Shown here in pieces: positions 3,200-60,682 of a stretch of 64,000 bases of DNA. The translations under genes and the position numbers were made by a program. A model generated the notes under the pieces. That model saw only the letters and a program-made list of their open reading frames with translations. It had not been told where the DNA came from and did no database searches. Origin of the DNA: Minisyncoccota bacterium (GTDB lineage: Bacteria > Patescibacteriota > Minisyncoccia > Phycocordibacterales > UBA6899); assembly GCA_035583355.1 (NCBI GenBank), contig DATEZQ010000012.1, positions 24,683-88,682 on the forward strand. Direction: 5' to 3'. Position 1 is the first letter of the stretch; each line of letters starts with the position of its first letter.

Positions 3200-4090
3200 A
3201 TGAAAATTCTAGTCACCGGAGCAACGGGTTTCATTGGCAGTAATCTTGTCGAACGATGCATTGAAAATGGCGACGAAATCACTGCACTCATTCGCCCTAC
3301 CACAAATACGACGAAACTCGACACTCGAGTGCGCACGCATAACTTCACGGGCGACATGTACTCAATCGAGGAACTCTTCGCAAAAAATTACTTCAACGGG
3401 GTGATTCACCTCGCGACGCATTTCCTAGCACAACATCGACCACAAGATATTACGCAACTCCTTGAGAGCAACATATCCTTCGGTACGAAGCTCTTGGATG
3501 TCGCCACGCGGCACGAAACGCCTTGGTTCATCAACACGAGTACGTTTGTGCAATACGCAGCAGACGGCACCTACGCCCCCATGAACCTGTATGCGGCGAC
3601 AAAGCAAGCATTTGCGGATATTGTGCGCTACTACGCAGAAACCTCACCGACGACAATCATTGACATCACACTCTTTGACACGTTCGGGAAGGGCGATACC
3701 CGCAGAAAGCTCGCGAATATCCTCCTTGAGGCTGCACAGAAGAAAATGCCACTTGATATGTCTCCGGGCGAACAGATCCTCGACATCAGCCCCATCGAGA
3801 ACATCATCGACGGATTCGAGAGGATGCTTGAGTTACTTTCAAGTCCAGCGCAGACCAATCTTCGAGGAAAGTCATTCGTGCTCTCGTCAGGGGAACAAAT
3901 GACATTGCGTGACTTCGTGGCGCTCTTTGGTCGCATTTGTGGCCACCCCATCGATGCGCGATTTGGCGCCTTGAACTACCGTCCAAGAGAAATCATGCTT
4001 CCACTACAGCATGGACTTATTGTCCCAGGATGGGAGCCACGACTCACCCTTGAGGAAGCACTGACTTCCTTTATCGGTGTGCAGAAATAA
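3200..4090 (+). CDS. NAD-dependent epimerase/dehydratase (SDR); candidate 4-reductase of the CDP-deoxyhexose pathway
   Basis: MKILVTGATGFIGSNLV Rossmann motif, 296 aa, GGAGG RBS. Confidence 0.65.
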   Translation: MKILVTGATGFIGSNLVERCIENGDEITALIRPTTNTTKLDTRVRTHNFTGDMYSIEELFAKNYFNGVIHLATHFLAQHRPQDITQLLESNISFGTKLLDVATRHETPWFINTSTFVQYAADGTYAPMNLYAATKQAFADIVRYYAETSPTTIIDITLFDTFGKGDTRRKLANILLEAAQKKMPLDMSPGEQILDISPIENIIDGFERMLELLSSPAQTNLRGKSFVLSSGEQMTLRDFVALFGRICGHPIDARFGALNYRPREIMLPLQHGLIVPGWEPRLTLEEALTSFIGVQK

Positions 4091-8163: not shown

Positions 8164-9399
8164 ATGAGTCTTTCTTCCTTCATAAACACACACATGCATC
8201 GCGGAAAAATTTACTGGAACATTCGAGAAGCATATGTGCGTTCTTTCTCATTCATGAAGATGTTAATTGATAAGCCCAGAAAAAATACGAAGAAAAGATT
8301 GCTTTTCTATCATCTTGCTGGACTCGATTTTGGCGGTACCGAAAAATATCTCCAAATACTGGCAAAGCATCTTGATAAGAATAAATATGATGTATATTTT
8401 CTTCATCCCGAGCTCCATGAGGAAGGAGATAAAAGAAAGAGTCGTTTGAACTACATTCGAGATGGTAAGGTAATCGCGATCCCTTTTGCACACGAAAGGG
8501 CAGATGATGTGCCTCCCCACTTCGTTTCTGGTATGAATCCTGAAATTCATGAACTCATCAAAGCATTAAACATCGACATACTCGTAATGGCAGAGGTGGG
8601 TGGCGCGAACTACCCACTCACGACAGTTCGAAATATCCCCATCATCATGATCAATATTTTTGGTGTACCAAATGTGCAAAAAAATATTGTTTACCATATC
8701 TGCATTTCTGAAGAAGTCTCTGCAAAGCTTGAGGGAGTTGTATCAAAAGAAAAACGGGTCGTCTTTCCTGTCCCCTCTGAACCTCCCCTCCCCGAAATGC
8801 TTGCGCGAGGCAAAGCAATTCGAGAGAAATTTGGAATCAAGGATTCCGACTTTGTATTCGGAAGAATAGGTCGCCCATCAGATGGCATCTTTGACCCCAT
8901 CGGGATTAATGCGTTTGAGCTTATCGTGAAGAACCACCCCGAAGCACATTACATCATCATGGCCCCAATGCCTGCATTGAAATCGATTGTGAGCGAACGA
9001 AATATCCCAAATGTACATTACATTGACCCAAGCTACGAAGAAGAAGATATTTGGGGATTCCATGGATCACTCGATGCGCTTGCACACTTCAGATTCGACG
9101 GAGAATCATTCGGACTAAATATCGCAGAGTCAATGATTGCAGGAAATCCAATACTCTCCCACAAGTCGCACATCTGGAATGCACACCTTGAGTATCTCGA
9201 TAGCAATTTTAGTCTAGTAAGCGAGAAAGATGATTTCGCTACATATGCTAAAAATATGGAGTCATTCATTGCAAAGAAGAAAAATAGCGACTTCCAAAAC
9301 ATGCGACGCGCAGCAGAGAAGAAGGGACGTGAACTTTTTCTCATCGATACGACAATGAAGCGATTTGAAGAACTCATCGAGACGGCATTCAATAAATAG
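8164..9399 (+). CDS. group 1 (GT4-like) glycosyltransferase
   Basis: C-terminal FRFDGESFGLNIAESMIAGNPIL motif (E-x7-E-type GT-B donor-binding motif); 411 aa. Confidence 0.5.
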   Translation: MSLSSFINTHMHRGKIYWNIREAYVRSFSFMKMLIDKPRKNTKKRLLFYHLAGLDFGGTEKYLQILAKHLDKNKYDVYFLHPELHEEGDKRKSRLNYIRDGKVIAIPFAHERADDVPPHFVSGMNPEIHELIKALNIDILVMAEVGGANYPLTTVRNIPIIMINIFGVPNVQKNIVYHICISEEVSAKLEGVVSKEKRVVFPVPSEPPLPEMLARGKAIREKFGIKDSDFVFGRIGRPSDGIFDPIGINAFELIVKNHPEAHYIIMAPMPALKSIVSERNIPNVHYIDPSYEEEDIWGFHGSLDALAHFRFDGESFGLNIAESMIAGNPILSHKSHIWNAHLEYLDSNFSLVSEKDDFATYAKNMESFIAKKKNSDFQNMRRAAEKKGRELFLIDTTMKRFEELIETAFNK

Positions 9400-18285: not shown

Positions 18286-20742
18286 TTATTCATTATCTCC
18301 GAGCACCGATCTGAGCTGATCGAGCGGAACCTCTTTCGGCTGCTGCTTCTCCTCAACTGGAGTAGCAACAAGCTGCACTGGTGGCTCTACTCCATCACCC
18401 TCGAGAGCAGGTGCCGCTGCGGTTTTTTCCTGAAGTTTCTTTAGTGCTTCAGCAAGTGCATCAAGCTTCTCTGGGGTGGGACTCTTGTTATCAACACGGG
18501 GCGCCACATTGCGCGCCTCTGACTTTGCAAGTTCACGTTTGAGATTCTCCGTACGCGTGCGATCGACAGGACGTTCTGTACGCATGGAGTCCTTACGCTC
18601 TTCTTTCTTGCCATCATCACGGCGAGTATCCTCTCGTCGAGACTCCTCCCTACGGGGCTCGCGACTAGGAACTGACGGCGGTGCAACATGTTGCTGCGTA
18701 TGTGTCTTTGGACTTACTGGCACCACTACATATTGCGGCCCAAAGGCATGAGGTGACGGGAGCGGAGCTTGTGCAGGAGGATACGGATACTGCATCTGCT
18801 GCGAAGGATATTGCGGATACTGCGGCGCGTAATGCTGCGGATAATATGATTGTTGCGGCGGCGCAGGATACGGATACTGCGGCATTGGCTGCGGAGGATA
18901 ATAGTGTCCCGGCATAGCAGGTGGCAATGCGTAAGGATATCCCGGATGCTGAGGCTGCGCATAAGGAGCAGGATGATATTGCTGTGGCGGTGCGTACTGC
19001 TGCGGAGGCTGCTGCTGGTATTGCGGCGGCATCTGTTGCTGCGGCGCGGCATACTGCTGCTCCTGCTGTGGTTGTTGAGACGGGCGCTGCTGATCATATG
19101 AACCAAAGTTGTCTCGTGATCCCGCAGGAGCTGCATTCACGCGTGCAAGTGCATCACGCAATGCAGGGCCTCCCGGCATTGGTCGCTCACTCTGACGCGG
19201 TGCATACTGTGGTCGATCCTGTCCACCTCGATCATCACTACGCGGAACATAAGAAGGACGATCACCACGGTCGCGATCATTATCACGAGGAGGATATGAC
19301 GGGCGGGGACCTTGTCCACCACCATCACGTGACCCCGAAGAAGATCCTTCATAACGTGGTCGATCAGGACGTGCACCCGGAGAATATTTCTGCGTCTTTG
19401 GCGCATCACTAGTACTCCCCCCTTCTTTTACTGGCCTGAACCACACATTGATGTCGGCATCAACCTGTTCGCGTGGTCTTCCAAACTGCTTTCGGGAAGC
19501 ATCGATGACTTCTGCAAGATAGGTATGCTCGGGCATTGGCGGACGGTCTTCAGTGCGTGCGGAAAACGGAGCGGAACTTGCTCCACGGATCATGAGCTTA
19601 AGGTAGATCTGCGCAAAACCAAGGCTCACGAAATCATCAACAACGAATACTGGCGCAAATTCTTTCTCCAAAACTTCGGCATCCGTAGAACCCACACGGA
19701 AGGTGATCATTGTACCAACGTTTCCAAACACCGCGGAGCGCACTTCGTCCGTCATCTGATCAATATATTGATGTGCGATTGTGAGACAAAGTTTATACTT
19801 ACGTGCCTCAGAGAGAATATCCGCAAACGACTCATTCGCAAAGGATTGAAACTCATCGACATAAAGATAGAATGGTGGGAGTTCCTTGAGCTCTCCTGGC
19901 GTTACTTCGGCGCGGCTCATTGCAGCCAAATACATCTTCGTGATGAGCATAGCACCAAGGAGCGCAGCATTTCCTTCACCAATGCGGCCCTTACTCAAGT
20001 TCACAATGAAGATCTTTCGATTATCCATCATCCAACGAATATCGAATGTGGACTTCTCTTGTCCAACAATGTTACGAATGAGTGGATTTGCAGAAAATTG
20101 TCCAACCTTGTTTTGGATAGCAGATGCAGCTTCTGTTGCGAACTTCTCGGTATACTTCGCAAACTCATCTACCCAGAATGAACGCACAGAGGCATCTTTC
20201 ACGTTATTCACCACCATTTCACGAAAATCCTTGTCAGCGAACATACGATTCACACCAAGGAGTGTCGAGCCGGGAGTTTCAAGTAGTGCAAGGAGTGCAT
20301 TCGAGAGCAAGTATTCCATACGAGCACTCCATGCATCCACCCACACCTTCTTGAAAGCACCCATGAGCCCTGACGCAATGAGTGGTCGCTTCTCTGGTCC
20401 CATATCCTCAAGCACATTCATCGCAAGTGGATACTCCACATCAAATGGTGCAAAGTAGACGACATCATTCACACGTTCCTTTGGAACATACTGCAAAAGC
20501 GCCTCAGCGGTGCCTCCGTGAGGATCGATAAAACAAACTCCTTCCCCATTCTGAATATCTTGAATTGCGAGGTTTTCGAGCAAGGTAGATTTACCCATAC
20601 CCGTCTTACCGATGATGTACATGTGACGCGCACGATCCTCAGCACGAATGCCGAATTTCACGCGTTGTCCACGGAAGTCAGTTTCAGCGAAATAGGTAAT
20701 CTTTTCTTTGTCGTATTTCCAGCTCATAGTGGCGTTATACAT
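18286..20742 (-). CDS. TraD/TraG/VirD4-like (type IV coupling protein / HerA-FtsK superfamily) ATPase with long P/Q/Y-rich C-terminal tail
   Basis: Walker A IIGKTGMGKSTLLENL is followed by CFIDPHG. The C-terminal ~330 aa are a low-complexity proline/glutamine/tyrosine region (PQQYAPPQQYHPAPYAQPQHPGYPY...). Confidence 0.5.
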   Translation of the reverse strand: MYNATMSWKYDKEKITYFAETDFRGQRVKFGIRAEDRARHMYIIGKTGMGKSTLLENLAIQDIQNGEGVCFIDPHGGTAEALLQYVPKERVNDVVYFAPFDVEYPLAMNVLEDMGPEKRPLIASGLMGAFKKVWVDAWSARMEYLLSNALLALLETPGSTLLGVNRMFADKDFREMVVNNVKDASVRSFWVDEFAKYTEKFATEAASAIQNKVGQFSANPLIRNIVGQEKSTFDIRWMMDNRKIFIVNLSKGRIGEGNAALLGAMLITKMYLAAMSRAEVTPGELKELPPFYLYVDEFQSFANESFADILSEARKYKLCLTIAHQYIDQMTDEVRSAVFGNVGTMITFRVGSTDAEVLEKEFAPVFVVDDFVSLGFAQIYLKLMIRGASSAPFSARTEDRPPMPEHTYLAEVIDASRKQFGRPREQVDADINVWFRPVKEGGSTSDAPKTQKYSPGARPDRPRYEGSSSGSRDGGGQGPRPSYPPRDNDRDRGDRPSYVPRSDDRGGQDRPQYAPRQSERPMPGGPALRDALARVNAAPAGSRDNFGSYDQQRPSQQPQQEQQYAAPQQQMPPQYQQQPPQQYAPPQQYHPAPYAQPQHPGYPYALPPAMPGHYYPPQPMPQYPYPAPPQQSYYPQHYAPQYPQYPSQQMQYPYPPAQAPLPSPHAFGPQYVVVPVSPKTHTQQHVAPPSVPSREPRREESRREDTRRDDGKKEERKDSMRTERPVDRTRTENLKRELAKSEARNVAPRVDNKSPTPEKLDALAEALKKLQEKTAAAPALEGDGVEPPVQLVATPVEEKQQPKEVPLDQLRSVLGDNE

Positions 20743-22789: not shown

Positions 22790-23470
22790 CTACATTTGAT
22801 TGATTGCGACCACGAATTCACCTCGGACTTTGTCCGGATGGGCAGCGTAATAGGCACGCACTTCCGCTGCGGTACCAATCTGTACTTCCTCAAACATTTT
22901 TGTGAGTTCTCGGCAGGCCGCAACTTTCCGATCTGCGGGAAGATACTTCTCGAGCGACTCAAGTGTCTTTTCGATACGGTGCGGAGATTCGTAAAATACT
23001 ATCGTGCGCTCTGTTTCTGCTATTTCTTTAAAGAGTGTCTCTCTCCCCTTCTTGTGCGGGAGAAAACCGAGAAAAAGAAACTGTGCTGAAGAGAATCCTG
23101 TCGAGACAAGCGCGGTGAGGAGTGCGGAAGCACCCGGAATTGCAATCACCTGCACGTCGGGCAGATGCTCACGTACAAGCTGGACAAGGAGTACCCCAGG
23201 ATCTGAAAGCGTCGGAGTGCCCGCATCAGATACAAGTGCGAGATCTTGACCGTCACGGAGAAGCTCAAGGATATCATCATGTTTCCCTGAACTACTCTGT
23301 GCGTGGTAGCTCATCGTCGGTACATGGATATCATATTTCGCGAGCAGATTCCTCGTCACGCGCGTGTCCTCACAAAGGATCTTATTGACCGATTTGAGGA
23401 CATTTAGCGCCCGCAGCGTGATATCTTCGAGGTTGCCAATTGGAGTAGAGACTATATATAGTGTCGCCAT
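22790..23470 (-). CDS. rsmI: 16S rRNA (cytidine1402-2'-O)-methyltransferase RsmI
   Basis: LYIVSTPIGNLEDITLRAL...ILCEDTRVT motif of the tetrapyrrole-methylase-fold RsmI. Confidence 0.85.
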   Translation of the reverse strand: MATLYIVSTPIGNLEDITLRALNVLKSVNKILCEDTRVTRNLLAKYDIHVPTMSYHAQSSSGKHDDILELLRDGQDLALVSDAGTPTLSDPGVLLVQLVREHLPDVQVIAIPGASALLTALVSTGFSSAQFLFLGFLPHKKGRETLFKEIAETERTIVFYESPHRIEKTLESLEKYLPADRKVAACRELTKMFEEVQIGTAAEVRAYYAAHPDKVRGEFVVAINQM

Positions 23471-23568
23471 AGAGGCATGTTAGCACAATATCCCAATAAT
23501 CAAAAACAAATATTGTGTGCTAAAAAACTCATATTTGTACACATTGTGCGCATGCCAAGACTCGAACT

Positions 23569-23692
23569 TTCTCGTCTTTACCCGTGAACGACTCAGCGCA
23601 GCTGAATCGTGAGTTGATAGCCGCACGGTGGCGCGACCTTGTCGGGCAAGCCAGCCCCGGTGCCCGAAGGGCCTGGCTTTTCAGTGATGCGC
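23569..23692 (-). ncRNA. structured repeat element, copy A (unclassified family)
   Basis: Shares the core GTCGCGCCACCG(Y)GCG(K)C(W)ATCAACTC plus downstream hairpins with copies B (23756-23850) and E (26871-27010). Hairpin stems differ by compensatory changes. Confidence 0.35.
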
Positions 23693-23755
23693 AAATAAAA
23701 AAGCCTTAAATAGATTCATTGATTTACAAGGTGCGCATGCCAAGACTCGAACTTG

Positions 23756-23850
23756 GGACCTCGTTTTACTGGATAGGGCTAGTGCGCAGCAATAGCCCGA
23801 GTTGATTGCCGCGCGGTGGCGCGACCTTGACCAGCAAGCGAGCCTGGTGT
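23756..23850 (-). ncRNA. structured repeat element, copy B
   Basis: Same conserved core. Hairpin GGGCTA-TTGCTGCGCAC-TAGCCC versus AAGCCA-CTGCTGCGCAT-TGGCTT in copy E, indicating covariation. Confidence 0.35.
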
Positions 23851-23883
23851 AAAGAAAAATCCCTATCAAATATTTATGTTCAA

Positions 23884-23959
23884 GGTGCGCATGCCAAGAC
23901 TCGAACTTGGGACCTCGTCATTATCAGTGACGCGCTCTAACCACCTGAGCTACACGCGC
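23884..23959 (-). tRNA. tRNA-Ile (anticodon GAT)
   Basis: The reverse complement folds as a cloverleaf. Acceptor GCGCGTG/CATGCGC, D-arm GCTC-AGGTGGTTA-GAGC, anticodon arm CGTCA-CTGATAA-TGACG, T-arm CCAAG-TTCGAGT-CTTGG, discriminator A. Confidence 0.8.
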
Positions 23960-24010
23960 ACTTTGAACACAAATATTTAATTGGGATCGATTTTTCTTTA
24001 CCTCGCTTTT

Positions 24011-24047
24011 CAGTGACGCGCTCTAACCACCTGAGCTACACGCGCAC
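24011..24047 (-). other. tRNA-Ile(GAT) 5'-half fragment (acceptor 5' strand to anticodon loop)
   Basis: 37 nt identical to positions 1-37 of the adjacent tRNA-Ile, followed by diverged sequence (CACTGAAAAGCGAGG). Confidence 0.6.
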
Positions 24048-24217
24048 TTTGTAAACCAATGAATATATTTAAGACCTAAATCACTCGCTTTCGCGTAGAG
24101 GCAATATACCAAAAATTCAGTGGAAACGCAATAGGTAAAGGCGCAATTCAGGATTACCCTTGACGCACTAATCTGGTCTGTTATGGTTAAAACAGAACTT
24201 CACCACAAGGAGTCCAT

Positions 24218-24553
24218 ATGGACAACCCCTCACTGCTCCTTTCAGGACTTCGCCTCAACAAAGCCCTCCAAGTTTGTGCTCCCGAAGAGCACAAAGCACT
24301 ACACCGAGCGATTGAAAAATTACTCGAAAGTGCAGGCCTCGAGCGCCCTCCCGGGAAAGAGTATGTCGTCACACTGACTGAAATACTCACCACGAGAGAA
24401 ATCACTGGGTCAGTTCGTGGAATGGTGACACTCGACCTTGCGCTCGACGGATTCTTCGATGCGCTCTTCAAGTTTACCCAGAACCGCTCGGACATCAGCG
24501 CGCTTTGCTGCGCTATCGGCCTCTACCGCTCGCGGATCAATCCGCGATCCTAA
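24218..24553 (+). CDS. hypothetical protein
   Basis: 111-aa ORF with AAGGAG RBS, followed by intrinsic terminator 24550-24583. Confidence 0.45.
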   Translation: MDNPSLLLSGLRLNKALQVCAPEEHKALHRAIEKLLESAGLERPPGKEYVVTLTEILTTREITGSVRGMVTLDLALDGFFDALFKFTQNRSDISALCCAIGLYRSRINPRS

Positions 24554-26680: not shown

Positions 26681-26870
26681 ATATCGCCATTATAGCAGTT
26701 GCGGCAAAAGAAAACATGTAAAAACCTACCGCAATCATGAAATACAACATGTAAAGCCCCCATTCATCGAGTATTTAAATATTTGAAAATTTCAAAAATT
26801 TAATAAAAACCATCCAGTTCTTCCCTACTTTGAATCTAGGCGTATGCAAGTACTTGATCAATTCTTGATG

Positions 26871-27010
26871 TCTACCCGTGAACGACTCAGCGCATGAAAT
26901 TCTCTATCGGAAAAAGCCAATGCGCAGCAGTGGCTTGAGTTGATAGACGCGCGGTGGCGCGACTCCTACCGGTATCAGCGCCTGGTGCCGAGTTCTCGAG
27001 GCCGCTGATA
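26871..27010 (-). ncRNA. structured repeat element, copy E (in 16S downstream spacer)
   Basis: Same core and loop motif CTGCTGCGCA. It shares TGCGCTGAGTCGTTCACGGGTA with copy A. It is present in only one of two duplicated spacer units. Confidence 0.35.
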
Positions 27011-27384
27011 TTGCCTCATTTTACTTCAAATAGCGAGACGTTCCCAAAGGGAACGCCCCGAGCGTTGAGAATTCCCATAACCAATATTTAAACATTTGAA
27101 AATTTAAATATTTAACAAAAAGAAAAACACCCTTCCGGGTATTTCTTTACATTGACTACTGAGTGTTACGCAAGTTCTTAATCAATTCTTGATTCACTAT
27201 CAAGATAAGGTTGGAGAATATAAAATTCTCTATTGCCTCATTTTACCCCCTCGCTAACGTATTTGCGAGGAAATCCGACGTGCGACACCAGCACGTTAGG
27301 TCATGACTTAAATGGAATTTCATGATATCCATGTTTCTTGAAGAAACAATCGACGATCAGTGATCATATAAATATGAATCACGC

Positions 27385-28898
<1,514 letters not shown>

Positions 28899-29417
28899 TA
28901 ATTAAAAGTAAAATGAGACAAGAGAGAACTTTCTTTCTTGACCCAACTTTCAATGCTCTTGATTATTACTGTGTTATCGATTACTCGATTTCTCAAAACT
29001 GGAATTACAAATTGATTATGAAATTTGTTATTTTGGTCATTGCCTTTCGTATTACTCATACGGCAGGTTTGACCAGGATCTTGCGTAACACTCAGTTGTC
29101 AAAGTTCTTTACGTCTTTTCGGGGTTTTTGCTTTCGCTGAACTTCGATTGACGTAAGATGCAGTATATACGAATGCCAGGAATAGTCAAGCGATTTCTCC
29201 CCTTTCTTTTTACTGCCCTAGGACTTTATCACACTGAAATACCTATGTCAATACCTTTCTGTTAGTCACTCTATAGAGTACTTTCATAAGCATACTGACT
29301 GACCATTTGAACCACCCTACGCACCTGCATTTCCTCTCCATATATATGTATGTTTGCTGGTGCAAATTCCATGCAGCTGAGCATGAGAAAAACAAAAAGA
29401 ACGCTCATGCGTTCTTT

Positions 29418-37874: not shown

Positions 37875-37961
37875 GGAGACGTGGCTGAGTGGTCGAAAGC
37901 ACCTCACTGCTAACGAGGCATCCCTTTACCGGGATCATGAGTTCGAATCTCATCGTCTCCG
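37875..37961 (+). tRNA. tRNA-Ser (anticodon GCT)
   Basis: Acceptor GGAGACG/CGTCTCC, anticodon loop CTGCTAA, long variable arm (ATCCC-TTTACC-GGGAT), T-arm ATGAG-TTCGAAT-CTCAT, discriminator G. Confidence 0.8.
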
Positions 37962-38020
37962 CAAAAAGAAAAACAACACGCAAGTGTTGTTTTTCTTTTT
38001 GCGGAGACGATGAGATTCGA
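37940..38020. repeat. 81-nt perfect palindrome spanning the tRNA-Ser 3' end, a terminator hairpin and an inverted copy of the tRNA 3' end
   Basis: gttcgaatctcatcgtctccgc + gcaaaaagaaaaacaacac-gcaa-gtgttgtttttctttttgc + gcggagacgatgagattcgaac. Confidence 0.7.
37959..38003. repeat. 43-bp direct repeat DR-left (second copy 39657-39704)
   Basis: gcaaaaagaaaaacaacacgc(a/g)agtgttgttttt(c/g)ttttt is about 40/43 identical between the two copies. Together they bracket a 1.65-kb two-gene module. Confidence 0.55.
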
Positions 38021-38023
38021 ACG

Positions 38024-38200
38024 GATAGGGGTCGGGAAAGGAAGCCCTTTCCCGTCTAGGAGAGCAGGAACCCCTCTTCCCCGAAGAGGGGTTCCGTCGA
38101 GAACCGTGGGTTCTCGAAGCCTTTGGCAGCGCGAGGCTCCTCCGGAGTGCGCCAGCCAAAGGCTGTGAGATTCTCACCCCTTATTAAACAAAAATCTGTC
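38024..38200. ncRNA. GC-rich multi-hairpin element (candidate small RNA or island-border element)
   Basis: Consecutive near-perfect hairpins: gggaaagg-aagc-cctttccc; ggaacccctcttc-ccc-gaagaggggttcc; tcgagaacc-gtg-ggttctcga; gcctttggc...gccaaaggc. The GC content is far above that of the adjacent AT-rich island. Confidence 0.3.
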
Positions 38201-38246
38201 ACTAGTAGCTCTCCAATTCTCTTAGTCTTAACTAGCCTCCTTGCCT

Positions 38247-38690
38247 CTATGAAATCACTTCTTCCACAATTCTTCCGTCTCTATAAACCCAGACGACGTG
38301 CACGCATCTTTTAAGTACTCCAACGAAGATGCCAATTTGGTAATTTAGATTTCTGTAACTCCTTATTTTATTGATATCCGCTACCCCCAATATTGAGCTC
38401 GGGGAGCATTTTTTTATTTCAAATATTGCAAGATTGCGTTCATTTGAACCTCTTCTGTGAATTATTATATCAGGTCGAACAACTGTTCCATCATCATTCA
38501 TTTTTGGTCCAGCTAAGCTTTTGCTATATTCACAGTCTATGTTAAATTCTTGCCCAAAATTACTTTCTAGATACAGAGCAATCCTATGGCTCAGGGTCGG
38601 CTCGTAGATTTTTACATTCATTAGTTCTACCCAGTCATTATCCATAAATAATCGAATTGCGGAACGAATTCCATTTTTTGTATCCTCCAT
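38247..38690 (-). CDS. hypothetical protein with PD-(D/E)xK-like motif
   Basis: 147 aa. RPDIIIHRRG...NLAIFEIKK fits hD-x(n)-E-x-K of restriction-endonuclease-fold nucleases. It lies in AT-rich DNA. Confidence 0.35.
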   Translation of the reverse strand: MEDTKNGIRSAIRLFMDNDWVELMNVKIYEPTLSHRIALYLESNFGQEFNIDCEYSKSLAGPKMNDDGTVVRPDIIIHRRGSNERNLAIFEIKKCSPSSILGVADINKIRSYRNLNYQIGIFVGVLKRCVHVVWVYRDGRIVEEVIS

Positions 38691-38694
38691 ATTA

Positions 38695-39471
38695 CTAGTT
38701 TTCTAATTTGACATATTTCTCTAGTTCAAGTGCAGCATCTCTAATCCCAGATATTTCATATATTAAATCACTGAGTCTATATATCATATCTGATGTTGCC
38801 ACAGACCACTGTTCGCACTGCTTACTCTGGAGGCTCCACAATTCTTTCTCTTTATCTAGGTTTTCTACGGCCTTCTCTTCCTTCTCCCTCAATAATATAT
38901 TTGCGTAATCCCAGTTAATAGTGTCTTTCAATCCATCTGAATGAAGGATCGAACTAAAGTTTTTTAGAATTTCTACCTCAGTAGCAGGTGCATTTATGTA
39001 GTAGCCAAAATCTCCCTTATTACCACCATGCTTATGATTGTTGCCAATATCTGTTATAGGTTTAAATTGAATATCTATTCTATCAATAAGTCCATTTAAC
39101 GACTCAACAACTTCCTCATCACGAGGGATATTCTTTTTAATAAATTTGATAAATCTTAATAATCTTTCTTTATATGCATACACATCAGCATAATATGAGT
39201 GAATATGGTATTGGAGAGCGTCTCCATCAGGTATTGCATCCAGTTCAACGTAAAAGTATTTAAAATATACAGTATACTTTTTTAATTTATTTTCGAACCA
39301 TTCGATTTCAGTTAATCTGTTTATACACTCATTTATATTAACTGTGTTAACGGTCAATAAAAGTGGTCTAATCTTCTGATTGATTTCTGAGATCATATAT
39401 TCTGTTCCCACATTCGTATCTCTAGATATTGAAAGTATACTTTTTATTCTTTGCAAGTGGCTTATTAACAT
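38695..39471 (-). CDS. hypothetical protein
   Basis: 258-aa ORF in AT-rich DNA. It lies 4 nt upstream of, and in a different frame from, the PD-(D/E)xK-like gene; no known domain. Confidence 0.35.
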   Translation of the reverse strand: MLISHLQRIKSILSISRDTNVGTEYMISEINQKIRPLLLTVNTVNINECINRLTEIEWFENKLKKYTVYFKYFYVELDAIPDGDALQYHIHSYYADVYAYKERLLRFIKFIKKNIPRDEEVVESLNGLIDRIDIQFKPITDIGNNHKHGGNKGDFGYYINAPATEVEILKNFSSILHSDGLKDTINWDYANILLREKEEKAVENLDKEKELWSLQSKQCEQWSVATSDMIYRLSDLIYEISGIRDAALELEKYVKLEN

Positions 39472-39656
39472 ACTTAAATTCTATCATGTACTTGCATAAT
39501 CTAAAGTCTAGAATTATTGCGCACCAATCTATTGAATTAGAAGTGCTACGGCCTTTTTGAAAGTGTGGCTAGAAATACCGACCCGCGAGCCTCATAAAAC
39601 GGATCAATATAATCCAAAATAACCTTACAGTACCTACGCCCACGATTACCTCACTC

Positions 39657-39704
39657 ATATGGCCTGCAAAAAGAAAAAACAACACGCGAGTGTTGTTTTT
39701 GTTT
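39657..39704. repeat. 43-bp direct repeat DR-right
   Basis: See DR-left. Confidence 0.55.
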
Positions 39705-39797
39705 TTCCACAGAATCCAATTAATACGAATACCCTCCTTGTTCAGAAACAGCAATTAAATACTTAAGGAATAAAATATTTCACGTACACAGAGAGTT

Positions 39798-41564
39798 CTA
39801 ATCAATTTCACTGTATACGACTTCCCTAAGGAATCTATCTTTTCGAGTAAACGTTGCCCTGGTATGCGCCTGTATGTCGAGCTTGATTTCTTTAGTCCTC
39901 TCTTCATTCTCAATTTTATCCCTATTTAACGTAAGAATATATTGAAAGTTTGACTTTTCCTCTTGCTCTGCGAGAAAATTAAGGCTCTGCACTAGCGTAT
40001 CTTGGTCCACATCAAAAATATTATCATGCACCAATATTGATGGATGTCGCTTCTTCGTATGATTATTAATCATCAATGCAATGTCATAAATAAATACCTT
40101 TTCCCTATCAACGCTATGACTCCCATCTTCAGGAATACGAAAATCGAATTGAACAATTTTTTTACCCTTACCAGACTTTACCGCGGATATATCAAAAGTA
40201 ATTTTGGCATTGCCCATTATATACGAGTGAATATCAGCAAGTGTCCTGTTGAAATCATCGATAACGCTGTTGTAGGACATTATTTCATCTTCAAGGGCAG
40301 ACACGTAGCCATCTCTCTTGCGTTTTAAGACGTTTATCTCATACTCAACACTCTCATGTTCACGCAAATTTGCTTGAGTAATTGATAAATTTTCTTTCCT
40401 CCTAGACATTAATGCGTAACTTTCTTTTAATGAATCAAGGGAACCATTGAAATTTATCATCACAAGCAATGACGACCTTCTCGCGTCTAAAACACTCAAA
40501 CGACTCTGGATTTTTTGCACCTCACTTCTAATCTCGTGAGCACGACCGTCTATAAGGATCTTTTGATAATTCTCAATTTTTTGCTTAAACGCGACAACAT
40601 CACTAATTGACCTTGCAACCAAATCACCAAGCCCCTTTGCAAATTTGTTATACACAAATTGAACTTCGCTAGTATCAATAATTTCCAACTTAGGTATAGA
40701 TTCAATTCTCTGAAGTTCAAACCTTAATGCCGCCCTCTTAATTCGCAGCTGTTCACATTCTAAATCAATATTCCCAAGCTCCTCTTGGTTATTTTGGAAA
40801 ATTGGTTCCATCTTATATTCATCAAGAAGTGAGTTTATTTTTCCGAGCTCAAGCTCAGAATCATTAACTTCGGCCTTGATGTCAGAAATATTTTGATTCC
40901 CAGAACCAGTCAACCTTTTTGTAATATGATTTTTAGTTTTCTGCTTTTCATCAATTTCCTTAAATACCTTTTTTATTCTCCTTATATAGCTAGGATTAAT
41001 TCCGAAAAGGTATAAATGTGGCTTGGTGAGATCTTGGTCAGGGATCTTTTCCCTCAAATCGTAGCAATTTAAAATACTCTTAAATTCTGAATCCTCAGAC
41101 CGTATTAATGGGCCCATAAACTCTCTGAAACTCGGCCTTTCTATATCATCTCCTGAATTGCTGAAAAGCAAATTTCCTAGGTAGGTAGTCGCATCTGCCA
41201 TATTCTTAAACTTTGTAATCTGGCCCTCACATACAATTTCCGGCTTATTCGGCTCTTTTATGGTTCTCCTCAATGTTAACTCCTTCCCGCCGATTGAAAC
41301 GTCAAGACAAATTATTGCGTTATGCGAAAATTTATCAAGCGGGATTTTCATAACCCTGCTATCACTCGAGTCCTTTAAAAGGCAAAAGTTGATAAATTCG
41401 ACTGAGAGCGACTTTCCGACTCCATTTGTTTTTTTATCCTTCCTGGACGTAGACCTTGATTCTGAATCCGGGACCTTCTCTCCAAGAATAATATTTATAC
41501 CATCATAAAAACTGATGGGCTTGAAAGTCTCTGGTTGGCTATATAGCTTATGTAGACGAATCAT
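39798..41564 (-). CDS. SMC/ABC-type ATPase (ABC-three-component-like / DUF2326-like) with coiled-coil insert
   Basis: N-terminal P-loop KKTNGVGKSLSVEF (xxNGxGKS), then about 300 aa of coiled-coil-like sequence. The C-terminal region has a Walker-B-like SILVHDNIFDVD with D-loop. The start overlaps the upstream stop. Confidence 0.5.
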   Translation of the reverse strand: MIRLHKLYSQPETFKPISFYDGINIILGEKVPDSESRSTSRKDKKTNGVGKSLSVEFINFCLLKDSSDSRVMKIPLDKFSHNAIICLDVSIGGKELTLRRTIKEPNKPEIVCEGQITKFKNMADATTYLGNLLFSNSGDDIERPSFREFMGPLIRSEDSEFKSILNCYDLREKIPDQDLTKPHLYLFGINPSYIRRIKKVFKEIDEKQKTKNHITKRLTGSGNQNISDIKAEVNDSELELGKINSLLDEYKMEPIFQNNQEELGNIDLECEQLRIKRAALRFELQRIESIPKLEIIDTSEVQFVYNKFAKGLGDLVARSISDVVAFKQKIENYQKILIDGRAHEIRSEVQKIQSRLSVLDARRSSLLVMINFNGSLDSLKESYALMSRRKENLSITQANLREHESVEYEINVLKRKRDGYVSALEDEIMSYNSVIDDFNRTLADIHSYIMGNAKITFDISAVKSGKGKKIVQFDFRIPEDGSHSVDREKVFIYDIALMINNHTKKRHPSILVHDNIFDVDQDTLVQSLNFLAEQEEKSNFQYILTLNRDKIENEERTKEIKLDIQAHTRATFTRKDRFLREVVYSEID

Positions 41565-41782
41565 ATCTTGAAAATATAAGGCTCCGAAAAATCAACTACT
41601 CCAGATTGATATAGAAATATCAAAGTAAAAATCAATTGGCGATGATTAACTAAACCAACTTGATCTTTCAAACTCAAAACAAGCTCATCGAGGGTGATTT
41701 TTTTTCTTTTTTGAATTCTCTTCAAAATAAGAAACCCTAGATAAGGGGGCGAAACTCCTATTTTTTCATCTTTTGTAATCAT
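41561..41782 (-). CDS. small hypothetical protein (73 aa), middle gene of three-gene cassette
   Basis: Both ends overlap its neighbours by 4 nt (ATGA), indicating translational coupling. Confidence 0.4.
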   Translation of the reverse strand: MITKDEKIGVSPPYLGFLILKRIQKRKKITLDELVLSLKDQVGLVNHRQLIFTLIFLYQSGVVDFSEPYIFKI

Positions 41783-42738
41783 GGAGCGTTCGGGAAAACA
41801 TTACACTTCACCAATTCGTCGAGTAAGTAAAACCTGATTGCCTGATAATCATACTTTTTCTTTGAATTTTTGGAAATTTCATTCTCGAAATATTCAGTGA
41901 GATTAACAAGTGCAACCTCCGCATCCCCATCAGCCTGGGTAAGAAAATCATCACTTCTAATTCGTAGAAAATTCCTCATATACTCGACCTTGGCAGTATC
42001 AAGGCCTAAGGCTCTATCGACTTCAACTCTTGCTGCGCAGTAAATAGGAAGAAGAGAGACTAGTTGCGATTTTAGAAATTCAGATTTCGAAGAGAATCGC
42101 TGCTCGATTTTCCCCTGAGGGTCTGGCTCCTCGCGATACTGTCCATTCGTTAATTCCTTTTTTTCACTAATGTACAGAACCAAATCTGCGATAGTCTCAA
42201 CCTCAGATGCAATTTTGTTTTCAGTTTTAGAATGAGAGCCACCCGAAAATTCCTCCTCAAAAATTTGTAAAATCCTCATGATCTCCCCAGGGGATCCTTT
42301 TGCCCGAACTAAACCTAAGATATCTGTCAAATCCATAATATCCCCTGAATCAAACTTTATTCCTTTAGGGGCAGTAATTGATTTAATTTTACGCTTTTTA
42401 TCTGCAATAATAATAAATTTCAATGTATCATACGAGGAAGAAAGCCCATTGGCGTCAAAAGCTTTTATTGTTTTATCAATTTTTGTTTTACTATTCTCGG
42501 ATGTAACTTGAACGGAAACGCGTTTCTCTTCATCCCCCAGGTCAATAGAGGGGAAGTTCATTCTTAGAATATTTTTATTTTCGAGATTTAAAGCGAGAAT
42601 TTCATTAAGCAGGCGACAGAAAAAATCTTCTAGGTGACTATTTATATCCGTTAGGCCATTTCCATTACTTATCTTAGTTTGCACTTTTATGCGAGCAAGA
42701 TATGCTGTCACCTCATTAATTAAATCTTGCCTATCCAT
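41779..42738 (-). CDS. SMEK-like domain protein (first gene of cassette)
   Basis: The N-terminal region EVTAYLARIKV...LTDINSHLEDFFCRLLNEILALNL...MNFPSIDLGDEEKRVSVQVTS resembles, from memory, N-termini annotated as SMEK domain in ABC-three-component-type conflict systems. Confidence 0.35.
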   Translation of the reverse strand: MDRQDLINEVTAYLARIKVQTKISNGNGLTDINSHLEDFFCRLLNEILALNLENKNILRMNFPSIDLGDEEKRVSVQVTSENSKTKIDKTIKAFDANGLSSSYDTLKFIIIADKKRKIKSITAPKGIKFDSGDIMDLTDILGLVRAKGSPGEIMRILQIFEEEFSGGSHSKTENKIASEVETIADLVLYISEKKELTNGQYREEPDPQGKIEQRFSSKSEFLKSQLVSLLPIYCAARVEVDRALGLDTAKVEYMRNFLRIRSDDFLTQADGDAEVALVNLTEYFENEISKNSKKKYDYQAIRFYLLDELVKCNVFPNAP

Positions 42739-42843
42739 GCTGCAATTATATCATAATTGAAATTGAATTCTCCTTAGCACGTAGTAATATTGTCGAAAAA
42801 ACCGCCAACGCGGTTTTTATTACCTCTTGCATCCTCCTACTCT

Positions 42844-43443
42844 TCAAAAAGTCCCCGTCTTTACTTCTCCAACACGCTCATAGTTAGCAAAGATCACTCC
42901 GCTCGGGGAAACCTTACTGTCTGTGAGCTTAAAGGCTGCAGGAATCGTCCCCTCAGCGAAAAGACGTTTACCTGTGCCCAGGGTAATTGGGAATATTTTT
43001 AGCCAGAGTTCATCAACCAAGTCGTGCTTCCAGAGAGTCTGGGCAAGGTTGCCACTCCCGTACACATGCAGATCGGGACCATCTTGTTTCTTTAGTTCCT
43101 GAATTTTTTCAACCACAGAAGCACCCGAAATCACTACTGAATTTTCCCAAGTTGGATCAAAGAGTGAATGCGATACAACATACTTTTTCATCGTATTTAT
43201 CCCCTGCCATCCATCCGCATGTGTCGGCCAATAGGAAGCAAAGATGTCGTACGTTTTCCTCCCCAAGAGAAGCTCTGATGGTCTGTTCATCTGCTCTGCC
43301 ATAACCGCGTTCCCCAATTCATCAAAATAGGGGACGGTCCAACCGCCGTACTTGAATCCACCGGAAGTATCTTCCTGCGGCCCTCCCGGAGCCTGCATAA
43401 CACCATCGAGTGTTATAAATGTTAAAACAATAATTTTTCTCAT
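42844..43443 (-). CDS. dihydrofolate reductase family protein (RibD C-terminal domain-like)
   Basis: MRKIIVLTFITLDGVMQAPGG...GGWT...LLLGRKTY pattern of YwjB/RibD_C family. Confidence 0.65.
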   Translation of the reverse strand: MRKIIVLTFITLDGVMQAPGGPQEDTSGGFKYGGWTVPYFDELGNAVMAEQMNRPSELLLGRKTYDIFASYWPTHADGWQGINTMKKYVVSHSLFDPTWENSVVISGASVVEKIQELKKQDGPDLHVYGSGNLAQTLWKHDLVDELWLKIFPITLGTGKRLFAEGTIPAAFKLTDSKVSPSGVIFANYERVGEVKTGTF

Positions 43444-43516
43444 ATATATTGACTGCGCTACATTGATAAAAAGGCTTTGAAAGAGACGAGGCTCCTTACA
43501 ATCCGCTCACTGCTCT

Positions 43517-43756
43517 CTACTTCCTCCACCTCGGCGCAAACCTCACGAGCCACGTGAAAAACCTCGCCTTTATCTCCCCCACCCCATTAGCCCTCATCCC
43601 CTCATAACACCTCTTCTGAAACTCCTTCAAATCATTCCCCTCATAACAAAGCTTCCCATCCTTAAAACAATAACTACAATATTTATCACTCCCACTTACC
43701 CCAGGATCCTTGTCCAAAGGCATCAAGCAACTTTCACACATGGGTTTCTTTTTCAT
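43517..43756 (-). CDS. zinc-ribbon domain protein
   Basis: 79 aa with CESC...CSYC cysteine pairs. Confidence 0.4.
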   Translation of the reverse strand: MKKKPMCESCLMPLDKDPGVSGSDKYCSYCFKDGKLCYEGNDLKEFQKRCYEGMRANGVGEIKARFFTWLVRFAPRWRK

Positions 43757-43769
43757 ATGATTATTATAT

Positions 43770-43797
43770 CAAAAACCAGCACGAGGTGCTGGTTTTT
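43770..43797. terminator. conserved-stem terminator hairpin (AAAAACCAGCAC-loop-GTGCTGGTTTTT family)
   Basis: Other members: 47683-47709, 48866-48889, 49356-49390, 49989-50016. CAACAC variants: 37962-38002, 39660-39703, 51402-51428, 52367-52394. Confidence 0.55.
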
Positions 43798-43799
43798 TA

Positions 43800-44264
43800 T
43801 TATGCAACTTTCTTCAGTTCCTTAAAACGCATCCAGATCAAAACGATATATACTACGAACGGAATCCAAGATACAAACAATGAGAAGAAGAAAAGATACG
43901 CAAATAAAGGGGCAAGCGGTGACATAAGGACCATATAGTACACATTACGCAACACAATAAGGCCATAGATTTTACCATCAAATCGCGATTCCGATGTGGT
44001 GAATTTTTTTCTGAATACGAAACTTTCCAAAACAATAAAAATCAAGAAATTTCTTATGTCTGAAGATATCGAACTAAAGTACGAACTTAATTGAACCGTT
44101 CGATCATGCATTATAATAGTGTCCGCAAGTAACATCACTGCAACCAGAATAAAGGTAATGATGTTTAGTCGAGGAATCTTCTCTGTCCAAAATACATTTT
44201 TGATTGGTGCAGCATTTTCTACTGCACTCGCAGCTGGCACTGCAGTCGCGTTTTCATTTTCCAT
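43800..44264 (-). CDS. hypothetical membrane protein
   Basis: 154 aa with four predicted TM helices. Confidence 0.4.
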   Translation of the reverse strand: MENENATAVPAASAVENAAPIKNVFWTEKIPRLNIITFILVAVMLLADTIIMHDRTVQLSSYFSSISSDIRNFLIFIVLESFVFRKKFTTSESRFDGKIYGLIVLRNVYYMVLMSPLAPLFAYLFFFSLFVSWIPFVVYIVLIWMRFKELKKVA

Positions 44265-44326
44265 AACACTATTATATCAAAAAAATACAGGCATCCTCAG
44301 GATGCCTGTAATCGATTGCAGTATTT

Positions 44327-60118: not shown

Positions 60119-60589
60119 ATGTCTTCCATCCACAACTTTGAAGAGCTCGCTATGTGGCAAAAAGCACGCCTACTTACCAAGGGTGTATATATCGCACTAC
60201 GAGAATGCCGCGATGGTGGATACAAAGACCAAATACAGAGAGCGAGTGTTTCGGTCATGAGCAACATTGCGGAGGGATTCGAGCGGGGAACGAAAAATGA
60301 ATTTATTAATTATCTCTATATCGCAAAAGGGTCTGCGGGTGAAGTACGTGCGCAGCTCTATGCAGGGCTTGATATCGGATATTTAAATATTGAAACATTT
60401 GAATATTTAAAGGATCTCGCGACGCAATGCTCAAAGCTCATACATTCGTTCACGGAAAAAGTAAAAGCGAATGATAGAAGCGGCATTCAATACAAACGCC
60501 CAGAATACATAGACCCGATGGAATCCATTACGAAGGAGCATGATCCGGCGTTGTGGGAAAAGCTGTATGGGAAGAAAGGGTCTACATAA
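60119..60589 (+). CDS. four-helix-bundle protein (23S rRNA intervening-sequence protein family)
   Basis: Signature WQKARLLTKGVY...QIQRASVSVMSNIAEGFERGTKNEFINYLYIAKGSAGEVRAQL. Confidence 0.65.
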   Translation: MSSIHNFEELAMWQKARLLTKGVYIALRECRDGGYKDQIQRASVSVMSNIAEGFERGTKNEFINYLYIAKGSAGEVRAQLYAGLDIGYLNIETFEYLKDLATQCSKLIHSFTEKVKANDRSGIQYKRPEYIDPMESITKEHDPALWEKLYGKKGST

Positions 60590-60627
60590 AACCAAGGAAA
60601 TGCTTTCGCATTTCCTTGGTTATTTTG

Positions 60628-60676: not shown

Positions 60677-60682
60677 ATTTTG

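Follow-up and report, generated by a model that had tools for sequence, protein, structure and literature searches.

In a 64,000-nucleotide (nt) stretch of a Minisyncoccota bacterium genome (contig DATEZQ010000012.1, positions 24,683 to 88,682; this whole stretch is called the window here) we find a discrete structured element of about 100 nt, named X in the following, which occurs in several copies and prefers NATA/TA sites. At both tRNA-Ile genes of the window, those with the anticodons GAT and TAT, X splits the resident gene, and an intact gene for the same tRNA lies within an X hairpin, co-oriented with the split gene and its promoter. Related candidate-phyla bacteria show this nesting of tRNA genes as well, and there seems to be no earlier description of it. 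We lean, with modest confidence, towards the reading that X is a non-autonomous TA-targeting insertion element, that its tRNA-carrying variants replace the essential gene which they destroy, and that recombination builds the arrays of tRNA pieces found at these loci.

ARAGORN calls three tRNA genes in the window, its open reading frames (ORFs) were scanned for protein families, and copies of X were scored with two covariance models, R1 and R2. X is 95-105 nt long and non-coding. It starts with a hairpin H0 bearing a conserved (A)CCAGG bulge, followed by a helix P-a which encloses the hairpins H1 (loop CACC) and H2 (apex GCUGCGC); the junction between H1 and H2 reads AUCAACUC, and the three-way junction as a whole comprises about 65 nt. 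H0 and P-a abut without a spacer, and both ends of X thus lie side by side. Where X is inserted, the anticodon stem, H0 and P-a meet with 5, 0 and 2 unpaired nt, according to the covariance-model structure and the folds.

The helices are borne out by covariation. In an alignment of eight copies, for which we had proposed the helices, 83.9% of the cells are paired and 19 of the 33 pairs change on both sides, compared to 6-9 pairs when the partners are slid; none of 500 shuffles reaches this level. Realignment with 12 copies gives 85% paired cells and double changes in 23 of 33 pairs (72 cells), as opposed to 8-12 pairs (11-17 cells) with slid partners, whereby this second alignment leans towards the structure because it was fitted to the model. 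H0 alone occurs in six compensated forms (AAGCGAG/CUCGCUU, AAGCCAG/CUGGCUU, AACCCAG/CUGGGUU, AACCGCG/CGCGGUU, AAGCAAG/CUUGCUU and AAGCAAA/UUUGCUU), and its compensation persists even where the two strands lie about 160 nt apart around a nested tRNA. P-a is closed by a G.U pair in 9 of 12 copies. Rfam yields no match to X at E-values (E) up to 10 in positions 23300-24300 or up to 5 in positions 26740-27300, nor at the gathering threshold over the entire window, known self-cleaving ribozymes and riboswitches included. X is thus a well-supported structured motif without family assignment. Among the identities that we considered and rejected are a tmRNA-like, a Y-RNA-like and a signal recognition particle (SRP)-like RNA (no Rfam match), an integron attC site (R'/R'' motifs absent) and an IS110 bridge RNA (no recombinase, wrong architecture). 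T-box-like sensing of tRNA by way of the CACC loops was a further idea that we did not retain.

The window contains four copies of X and one remnant, and the covariance model with default filters finds no further ones in it; a blastn search of phage and plasmid collections gave no match either. One copy and the remnant lie outside of tRNA genes:

26905 to 27010, minus strand: copy C of X, not in a tRNA gene, bounded by ATA repeats (R1 58.6 bits, R2 78 bits).
26873 to 26893, minus strand: 21-nt remnant of X with the sequence of the copy B 3' end, about 15 nt beyond copy C at another GATA site.

Copy C follows the 16S rRNA gene at a distance of about 390 nt and precedes a gene of the inosine monophosphate dehydrogenase (IMPDH) family by 220 nt. 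The roughly 230 nt surrounding it exist as a tandem duplicate, and the paralogous site at about 27225-27250 is empty, lacking exactly these 104 nt: it reads GTAAAATGAGGCAATAGAGAATTT, while the filled site reads ...GGCAATA, then the 104 nt, then ...CGATAGAGAATTT. For the remnant, too, an intact empty paralogue is present (CTTGATA followed by GTGAATCAAG). In the related locus L038, X occupies the same site as copy C with a different but compensated H0, and the Sua5 gene of L022 has a copy starting directly at its TAA stop codon, where X faces a convergent gene. All six independent sites have NATA immediately 5' of X and a repeat of 2-3 nt (TA, TAA or ATA), and the last 2-3 nt of X vary with the target. 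Within tRNA-Ile loops the targets are CUGAUAA, in sense orientation, in tRNA-Ile(GAU) and UAUAA, in antisense orientation, in tRNA-Ile(UAU). The distances of X to co-oriented downstream genes amount to 75 nt (rsmI), 220 nt (IMPDH) and 136 nt (ORF 61013). As to the ribosomal surroundings of copy C, the 16S rRNA gene (27389-28905, minus strand) is not followed by a 23S gene or spacer tRNAs within the window; two tandem non-coding units of about 230 nt (26745-27290), one of them with copy C, and then the IMPDH-family gene come after it.

The most elaborate arrangement is found at the tRNA-Ile(GAT) locus, whose pieces are as follows, in the orientation of the gene:

24103 to 24113, minus strand: promoter-like extended -10 motif TTTGGTATATT, upstream of the entire array, read from the sequence.
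24046 to 24076, minus strand: delta' arm, the 5' flank of the outer tRNA gene, complementary to the delta arm at 23693-23729.
24010 to 24045, minus strand: outer 5' half of a split tRNA-Ile(GAT) pseudogene, positions 1-35, 36/36 identical to the intact gene.
24001 to 24009, minus strand: left junction (mutated T36) and H0 5' strand AAGCGAG (24002-24008), which pairs with CTCGCTT at 23836-23842.
23960 to 24000, minus strand: beta' arm, the 5' arm of the long stem bearing the nested tRNA, starting with TA-AAGAAAAAT (inverted repeat and fold).
23884 to 23959, minus strand: intact nested tRNA-Ile(GAT), the sole functional-looking copy (ARAGORN; Rfam tRNA 69 bits).
23850 to 23883, minus strand: beta arm, the 3' arm of the long stem, ending with ATTTTTCTT-TA (inverted repeat and fold).
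23768 to 23849, minus strand: right part of X copy A (R1 82 bits, R2 97 bits; covariation).
23730 to 23767, minus strand: right junction TAAA, then the 3' half of the outer, split tRNA-Ile(GAT) pseudogene, which matches the intact gene at 35/35 nt.
23693 to 23729, minus strand: delta arm and T-run, the 3' flank of the outer gene; L019 and L039 have a near-identical 3' flank at their uninterrupted gene.
23681 to 23692, minus strand: 12-nt remnant GCGCATCACTGA of the anticodon-stem 5' strand and loop of an older, 5'-truncated tRNA-Ile copy.
23580 to 23680, minus strand: X copy B, plain form (R1 104.5 bits, the best copy; E about 1e-25; fold z-score (z) = -3.5).
23546 to 23579, minus strand: oldest, decayed 3' half, T-stem 5' strand lost; 24 nt identical (23546-23569), then degenerate homology to 23579.
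23521 to 23545, minus strand: flank alpha, after the decayed 3' half; in L020 alpha follows the live gene.

An earlier note on this locus, made from the sequence without database searches, had recognized a single intact tRNA-Ile(GAT) at 23884-23959, on which ARAGORN and Rfam agree. It had also described two extra 3' portions, and these are confirmed by BLAST at 23730-23764 (35 nt, from the anticodon-stem 3' strand to the 3' end) and 23546-23569 (24 nt, starting in the T-loop and reaching the 3' end), both 100% identical; no tRNA piece is matched in any of 100 shuffled sequences. The gene is encoded on the minus strand, and the 3' copies therefore lie downstream of it, not upstream as had been stated, while the 5'-half copy lies upstream. 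Of the two spacings given for the 3' copies, 154 nt is exact and 187 nt is corrected to about 185 nt, start to start. The 5'-half copy is real, with 36 instead of 37 identical nt and at a distance of 51 nt upstream of the gene, close to the 50 bp noted. What had escaped attention is a GC-rich block of about 100 nt that is repeated at 80% identity and precedes each extra 3' portion (repeat finder), a 29-nt inverted repeat that brackets the intact gene, and the 12-nt anticodon-stem piece at 23681-23692 before the second block.

With these pieces in place, the outer tRNA-Ile(GAT) is a split pseudogene around a live gene, so that the description of the locus as a 'split or decayed tRNA array', which the note had offered as one option, came closer to the truth than the attachment-site footprint. 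The outer 5' half runs to anticodon position 35, ending ...CACUGA, and positions 39-40 of the outer anticodon stem are mutated. In the minimum free energy (MFE) fold the outer 5' half pairs with the outer 3' half; in this fold of the upper unit the intact tRNA sits at the tip of a very long helix (z = -8.2), and the lower unit folds into hairpin plus three-way junction (z = -3.5). Across the copies, the H0 helix has 98-100% of its cells paired, with covariation at 6 of 7 pairs. The right part of copy A contains, in this order, the CACCAGG bulge, the H0 3' strand, P-a, H1 with its CACC loop, the junction AAUCAACUC, H2 with its GCUGCGC apex, and finally the 3' strand of P-a. Copy B shows H0 as AAGCCAG ... 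CUGGCUU capped by a short GCCC-UUCG-GGC hairpin, is followed on its right side by UAAAG and the decayed 3' portion, and has the same sequence in L001 and L002, Logan assemblies that are independent of each other.

The motif TTTGGTATATT is found at the matching relative position in L020, L038, L039, L041 and L044 and would, judged by its sequence, start transcripts that run into the outer 5' half and on across X and the nested tRNA; since a simple promoter scan did not call the motif, this role is inferred, and the promoter/terminator scan was uninformative. The delta arm with its T-run looks like a terminator. The cassette arms TA-AAGAAAAAT ... ATTTTTCTT-TA constitute a TA-flanked inverted repeat (window 23850-24000, and also L038, L041 and L044), and the nested-tRNA cassette may for this reason itself once have been a TA-inserting element. 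A 62-amino-acid (aa) ORF over the array (23681-23869, minus strand) is almost certainly spurious, as are a 99-aa and an 84-aa gene call over the tRNA/X array of L020 (2743-3277).

For comparison, we gathered loci around homologues of RsmI, namely L025 (95% RsmI identity to the window), L019 (93%), L020 (88%), L041 (81%), L038 (80%), L039 (80%) and L044 (76%). The uninterrupted locus that the earlier note had proposed to look for in related genomes is found in L019, where a single uninterrupted tRNA-Ile(GAT) lies between the same delta'/delta flanks and the window is about 241 nt longer; these flanks also enclose the uninterrupted gene of L039. Thus either the upper unit was inserted into the anticodon loop, or L019 represents a precise loss. 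After the L019 gene come the spacer known from the window and a plain X with the H0 AACCCAG/CUGGGUU. In L041, L038 and L044 the tRNA-Ile(GAT) is nested in H0 as in the window, with homologues of the beta' arm. Decay is plain to see in their outer halves, indicating that the outer gene is not under selection. Together with L046, described below for the TAT locus, nesting is seen in five genomes (window, L038, L041, L044 and L046).

In L020 and L039 the intact gene is followed by two units of X plus 3' portion. The first X is complete and preceded by a short anticodon-stem remnant, and the second unit starts with the beta arm and the right part of X; it would correspond to the nested form minus its left part, produced by deletion through recombination between 5' halves. 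The beta arm precedes X remnants in both loci, and counterparts of the GCGCATCACTGA remnant exist in L019, L020, L025, L039 and L044. X of L025 is cut short by a PaaX_M gene cassette. The PaaX_M gene lies between the tRNA array and rsmI in some relatives (L025; L020, 3283-3879) and is absent from the window; on either side of its cassette lies a palindrome of about 40 nt, the two being near-identical (AAATGCGACGGCCGTCGCATTT; L025, 135-180 and 788-833). We further note that the GAT locus is inverted relative to its neighbours in L019 (1-280) when compared to the window (23471-24120), and that in L038 a run of 100 N (3270-3369) inside the outer 5' half is bordered on both sides by the same 42 nt, resembling a repeat-caused scaffolding artefact.

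A second, differently oriented case is provided by the tRNA-Ile(TAT) locus:

60627 to 60666, minus strand: outer 3' portion of the split resident tRNA-Ile(TAT) (allele comparison).
60667 to 60864, plus strand: X copy D, antisense in the tRNA-Ile(TAT) anticodon loop (R1 56 bits, R2 81 bits).
60682 to 60755, minus strand: intact nested tRNA-Ile(TAT), a different allele from the split resident (ARAGORN; Rfam 71.5 bits).
60865 to 60876, minus strand: remnant of the outer tRNA-Ile(TAT) 5' portion; the reverse complement TAAGACG equals the anticodon-stem 5' strand, then decayed.

Copy D consists of the H0 strands at 60667-60673 and 60790-60796 and a three-way junction at 60797-60864. Its left flank is the reverse complement of the tRNA-Ile(UAU) 3' portion (...CCGTGTAT) and its right flank that of AAGACG; X is therefore inserted antisense, at TATAA on the opposite strand of the UAU loop. 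The H0 strands (AACAUCG/CGAUGUU) are 116 nt apart, with the intact tRNA-Ile(TAT) between them. As this helix is not formed in the MFE fold, its pairing rests on position and on the compensated variant AGCAUCG/CGAUGCU of L046. L046 (76% identical) and L045 (88% identical) were obtained as comparison loci via FtsH homologues. L045 carries a plain uninterrupted tRNA-Ile(TAT) without X. In L046, X is again antisense in the TAT loop and the intact tRNA lies in H2 on a 17-bp stem (z = -6.3); an older, decayed and truncated copy of the same composite lies at 8229-8360, and two tandem 61-nt repeats at 8618-8740 are made up of the last 24 nt of X and the reverse complement of the tRNA-Ile(TAT) 5' half.

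The comparison with these alleles reveals where the live gene of the window does not come from. The outer TAT fragment agrees with the L046 allele at 39 of 42 positions and with the L045 allele at 36, compared to 35 for the nested gene, and its acceptor 3' strand is that of the relatives (CUGGAUGGAC), the nested gene having AGGGCGGAC. The outer fragment hence fits the resident allele and not the nested gene, so that the live tRNA-Ile(TAT) is not a local duplicate of the split gene. The TAT locus is inverted in the window (60600-61000) relative to L045 and L046, both of which also contain a tRNA-Ile(TAT). This isoacceptor is uncommon in bacteria, and its presence suggests that AUA may be decoded without the lysidine route. 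Adjoining the split locus is an ORF (60119-60589, plus strand) assigned to PF05635, the family of 23S rRNA intervening sequence proteins (E = 3e-30), which is related to the Avd proteins of diversity-generating retroelements (DGRs); no reverse transcriptase is nearby. A DGR template repeat beside this Avd-like ORF was considered as an identity for X and rejected, given the lack of a reverse transcriptase and copy differences that are compensatory and not adenine-specific.

According to the reading that we favour, X would move at the DNA level with the aid of an enzyme encoded elsewhere. It inserts at NATA/TA, for which the anticodon loops of tRNA-Ile are natural targets. The resident gene is split into two decaying halves and the cargo tRNA would take over, being read from the resident promoter and presumably released from the long helix by the usual processing enzymes. 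As the gene is essential, only an X that carries a tRNA could be fixed in a live gene, and such cargo-bearing variants would be fixed by selection; plain X is seen only between genes or in tRNA copies that are 5'-truncated and dead. The tandem arrays of X plus displaced 3' half would arise by homologous recombination and gene conversion between these recurring halves, in conjunction with repeated hits, and allele replacement between relatives may contribute as well. Movement might be driven by a single-strand enzyme of the HUH/Y1 type or by a small recombinase of the serine or tyrosine family with a TA core as its substrate, or it might proceed by reverse splicing. H0 and P-a stack on a single continuous strand, which makes neighbours of the first and last bases of X and lets the target TA pair with the same internal bases. 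Such a geometry suits recognition as a folded single strand, of the IS200/IS605 or attC type, and an RNA reaction equally well. The G.U excess mildly favours the X strand as the acting strand.

A bolder proposal is that X stands for an undescribed class of structured mobile elements, in which movement is guided by the fold (an internal splint joining the ends and pairing with TA, as single-stranded DNA or as RNA) and combined with 'gene replacement' of an essential single-copy tRNA. We put this forward tentatively and would sooner doubt than defend it. Literature searches on anticodon-loop miniature elements, on structured repeats of Patescibacteria and on replacement-tRNA elements brought up no non-coding element that targets the anticodon loop of a tRNA and bears a whole replacement for it in a hairpin, which, with incomplete coverage of that literature, is weak evidence of novelty.

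Several observations weigh against an insertion element of this kind. Pfam scans of 59 of the 63 window ORFs of at least 90 aa reveal no integrase, transposase, other recombinase, reverse transcriptase or homing endonuclease, and mobility is consequently deduced only from presence/absence and dispersal. Inspection of the ends of five X copies shows no terminal inverted repeats, and X is therefore not a standard miniature inverted-repeat transposable element (MITE) of the DDE type. The G.U pairs outnumber the A.C pairs by only about 2:1 (23 vs 12). Thus far the family is seen in about eight related genomes only. The H1 hairpin pattern AAGGTCGCGCCACCGNGCGGC, which was too specific, gave 16 matches in a genome contig collection, all due to chance and in GC-rich genomes, and the pattern ATCAACTY-N8-GCTGCGC-N14-GTAA, which was too narrow, gave 12 chance matches in metagenome contigs and none in viral contigs. 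The mutated right junction TAAAACGAGG is common to four X copies in three genomes, suggesting spread at the tRNA locus by homologous recombination and not by fresh transposition. In addition, the 5' remnants of the truncated copies all start near the anticodon-stem 5' strand (positions 22-28), which fits fragments of an integrase attP site or a role of the stem as well as random decay. Finally, the favoured reading does not account for the entry of a tRNA gene into an X hairpin, seemingly on three separate occasions. We found no single series of events that derives all the arrays (L020, L039 and unit B of the window), and unequal recombination between alleles is assumed to lie behind them.

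Integrative elements such as phages, integrative and conjugative elements and genomic islands target tRNA genes and carry the tRNA 3' portion in attP, and the earlier note had accordingly read the repeated 3' ends as the footprint of serial integration and excision. On that view, each element would have displaced the host 3' end and been deleted later, with tandem attR-like scars as the residue, and X would be an element arm beside the attachment core. With X such elements share the tRNA target, often the anticodon loop, the provision of replacement tRNA sequence and displaced direct repeats; the displaced fragments of the window run from the anticodon stem/loop to the tRNA 3' end as in anticodon-loop attachment sites, the copy farthest from the gene is the most decayed, and the region beyond the array is variable (PaaX_M cassette in L020/L025, Bro-N gene in L039, inverted locus in L019). 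Repeated hits by mobile DNA at a tRNA gene are thus the part of the claim that stands. The scar of an integrase is not: none is encoded by the scanned ORFs of the 64 kb or called in the fetched loci of the relatives, and the units measure only 150-190 nt, with direct repeats that bound just 120-150 nt of non-coding DNA (elements of 100-245 nt all told). X lies within a tRNA fragment, between anticodon-loop copies and not beside them; the insert of about 241 nt splits one gene, which is whole in L019, and both halves of the target remain, with delta'/delta pairing around the outer halves and beta'/beta around the inner gene. Integration that restores a 3' end by fusion could not create the duplicated 5' half (24010-24045) and a whole nested live gene. 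X also lands outside tRNA genes, in one case with a clean paralogous empty site, and its compensatory structural conservation is unexpected for a protein-binding arm. Nested architecture and non-tRNA copies by themselves already largely refute this explanation, which we regard as quite improbable. It is also unlikely, in our estimation, that X is a resident functional RNA motif for tRNA or rRNA processing, or a leader of rsmI, IMPDH and the like, copied by local duplication. The covariation does demonstrate selection on structure, all copies are in rRNA/tRNA-Ile neighbourhoods or just upstream of co-oriented genes, the copy upstream of IMPDH is at the same site in L038, and H0 with the long stem around the nested tRNA resembles a processing stem. 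Against this stand base-precise filled and empty sites with repeats of 2-3 nt, both orientations of X relative to the interrupted tRNA, truncated remnants, the L022 copy placed after a stop codon and facing a convergent gene, and the lack of X in the fetched L045 (RecG to SmpB around tRNA-Ile(TAT)) and L043. It is hardly credible that the array is an assembly artefact, or else a functional tRNA in split, permuted or intron-containing form, the two possibilities that the earlier note had named as fatal to its own reading. The repeats do break assemblies with short k-mers: the Logan contigs L001, L002, L021 and L025 begin inside the tRNA 3'-half repeat, the L019 contig of 193 kb breaks off within a copy of X, and the N-gap of L038 has duplicated edges; the MFE pairing of the outer halves, moreover, forms acceptor and T arms. 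Yet the same gapless nested order appears in independent assemblies from different samples and pipelines, namely the window, L041 and L044 (the nested relatives L041, L038 and L044 come from the Joint Genome Institute (JGI) and NCBI, L041 from JGI and L044 from NCBI), and repeats of 35-36 nt are below the usual final k-mers. ARAGORN, which models permuted and intron-containing genes, calls the nested gene only, and the mutated outer anticodon stem together with the decay of the outer halves in relatives speaks against a functional split tRNA.

The last alternative to be weighed holds that X is a new small intron or intervening sequence of tRNA that acts at the RNA level, be it self-splicing, self-cleaving or removed by the host, and that spreads by reverse splicing or homing. 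X occupies loop positions 35/36-38/39, and 35/36 is the position at which group I introns are enriched in the tRNA anticodon loops of Patescibacteria (PMC13011429); phylum, loop, overlapping position, a structured RNA-like insert and a possible seamless junction are what X has in common with them. The covariation is strong, a G.U pair closes P-a at the 3' boundary in the 9 of 12 copies mentioned, the 3-nt repeat permits a seamless exon junction, and the ends of X and of the exons converge on one junction. At three checked sites (copy B, copy C and L022) X points the same way as the genes beside it, and the ORFs to the left and right of copy D share its strand. On the other hand, X reaches about half the minimal size of group I introns, for which about 200 nt or more is expected, is too small for their core and has no match to RF00028 or any other Rfam family. 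By the group I rule the 5' exon ends with U and the intron with G (PMC13011429), but in each of the four boundary choices which the TAA repeat allows, a terminal G comes with A(-1) and a terminal U with U(-1), so that U(-1) and omega-G never coincide. The 25 intron-containing tRNA genes of Patescibacteria in Table 1 of that study do not include tRNA-Ile(GAU) (PMC13011429). Copy D and both L046 copies are antisense to the interrupted tRNA-Ile(UAU), the bulge-helix-bulge motif is absent, and X also occurs in intergenic DNA, where splicing would serve no purpose. A full-length tRNA interrupted by plain X is not seen; the interrupted genes are pseudogenes rescued by a second, always intact copy and not by splicing, and the outer exons decay (L038, L041 and L044), so that splicing of the interrupted gene, of which positions 39-40 are mutated in the window, would yield no canonical tRNA. 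Overall, we judge an intron of this type improbable.

Group I introns, bulge-helix-bulge introns, integrase attachment scars and DDE-type MITEs each resemble X in part, and X has the full set of defining features of none of them. Like the DDE-type MITEs it is small, non-coding, present in several copies and flanked by short repeats of 2-3 nt at six sites; it differs in lacking terminal inverted repeats, which the nested tRNA cassette, by contrast, possesses in its TA-flanked arms AAGAAAAAT/ATTTTTCTT. Small structured repeats are well known from bacteria, e.g. the Rickettsia palindromic elements (known also in tmRNA), Correia/NEMIS, RUP and REPINs. They resemble X in their size of about 100 nt, lack of coding capacity, multiple copies and stable fold, in the TA duplication in the case of Correia, and in that some lie in RNA genes; X differs in consisting of a hairpin plus three-way junction without inverted repeats, in preferring tRNA-Ile loops and in carrying, in some copies, a tRNA gene. 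Disrupted tRNA genes are known from archaea, where they are split (Nanoarchaeum), permuted, or interrupted by the mobile bulge-helix-bulge introns of Thermoproteales. As in the X loci, halves are apart in the DNA, complementary flanks are long and introns are mobile among tRNA genes; the host of X, by contrast, is a bacterium, there is no bulge-helix-bulge, and the halves are decaying pseudogene pieces beside an intact gene. The miniature relatives of IS200/IS605 elements, palindrome-associated transposable elements (PATEs), share with X ends that are not inverted repeats but fold in a strand-specific manner, insertion beside a short conserved motif (NATA for X) and a small non-autonomous form in need of an enzyme encoded elsewhere; IStrons are like X in that the insertion is made harmless, by splicing there and by a cargo gene here. 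X departs from PATEs in that its H0 starts at the junction and its terminal 2-3 nt co-vary with the target like a duplication. Tested as a PATE, X has NATA at all sites and folded ends, but a weak strand bias and last 2-3 nt that change with the target; Pfam finds neither a Y1 (HUH) transposase nor TnpB in the window. Literature on these systems includes PMC4227781 and PMC10690162 (PATEs and IStrons), PMC4033280 (a review of disrupted tRNA genes) and PMC9897764 (tRNA gene fragments).

An insertion into the anticodon loop of such a tRNA gene should be lethal, and two escapes are familiar, i.e. self-splicing introns and integrases that rebuild the 3' end, and the small genomes of the candidate phyla radiation typically contain few or single copies of each tRNA gene. 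The carriage of a whole replacement gene by a non-coding element would, if true, add a third route by which mobile DNA can settle in a gene that the cell needs, and it would also explain allele turnover and local inversions at tRNA-Ile loci. In practical terms, the arrays break short-read assemblies and create spurious ORF calls and tRNA fragments, which is a problem for annotation, and X is a concrete candidate for studies of self-cleavage, recombinase recognition and precursor processing.

Regarding the remainder of the window, the neighbouring proteins are RsmI, a DUF4015 protein, a TrwB-like ATPase and the IMPDH-family enzyme, and together with their best homologues they assign the window to a candidate-phyla bacterium of the Paceibacteria type. 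An 818-aa protein (18286-20742, minus strand) has weak matches to type IV secretion coupling proteins (TrwB/TraG) and is kept next to the DUF4015 gene in the four relatives for which that region was fetched (L019, L020/L021, L038). A stretch of low GC content (37875-44300; 36-41% compared to about 48% elsewhere) starts right after tRNA-Ser(GCT) and encodes DUF2326 and SMEK-domain proteins as well as several ORFs without a family; it could be a separate island integrated at tRNA-Ser(GCT).

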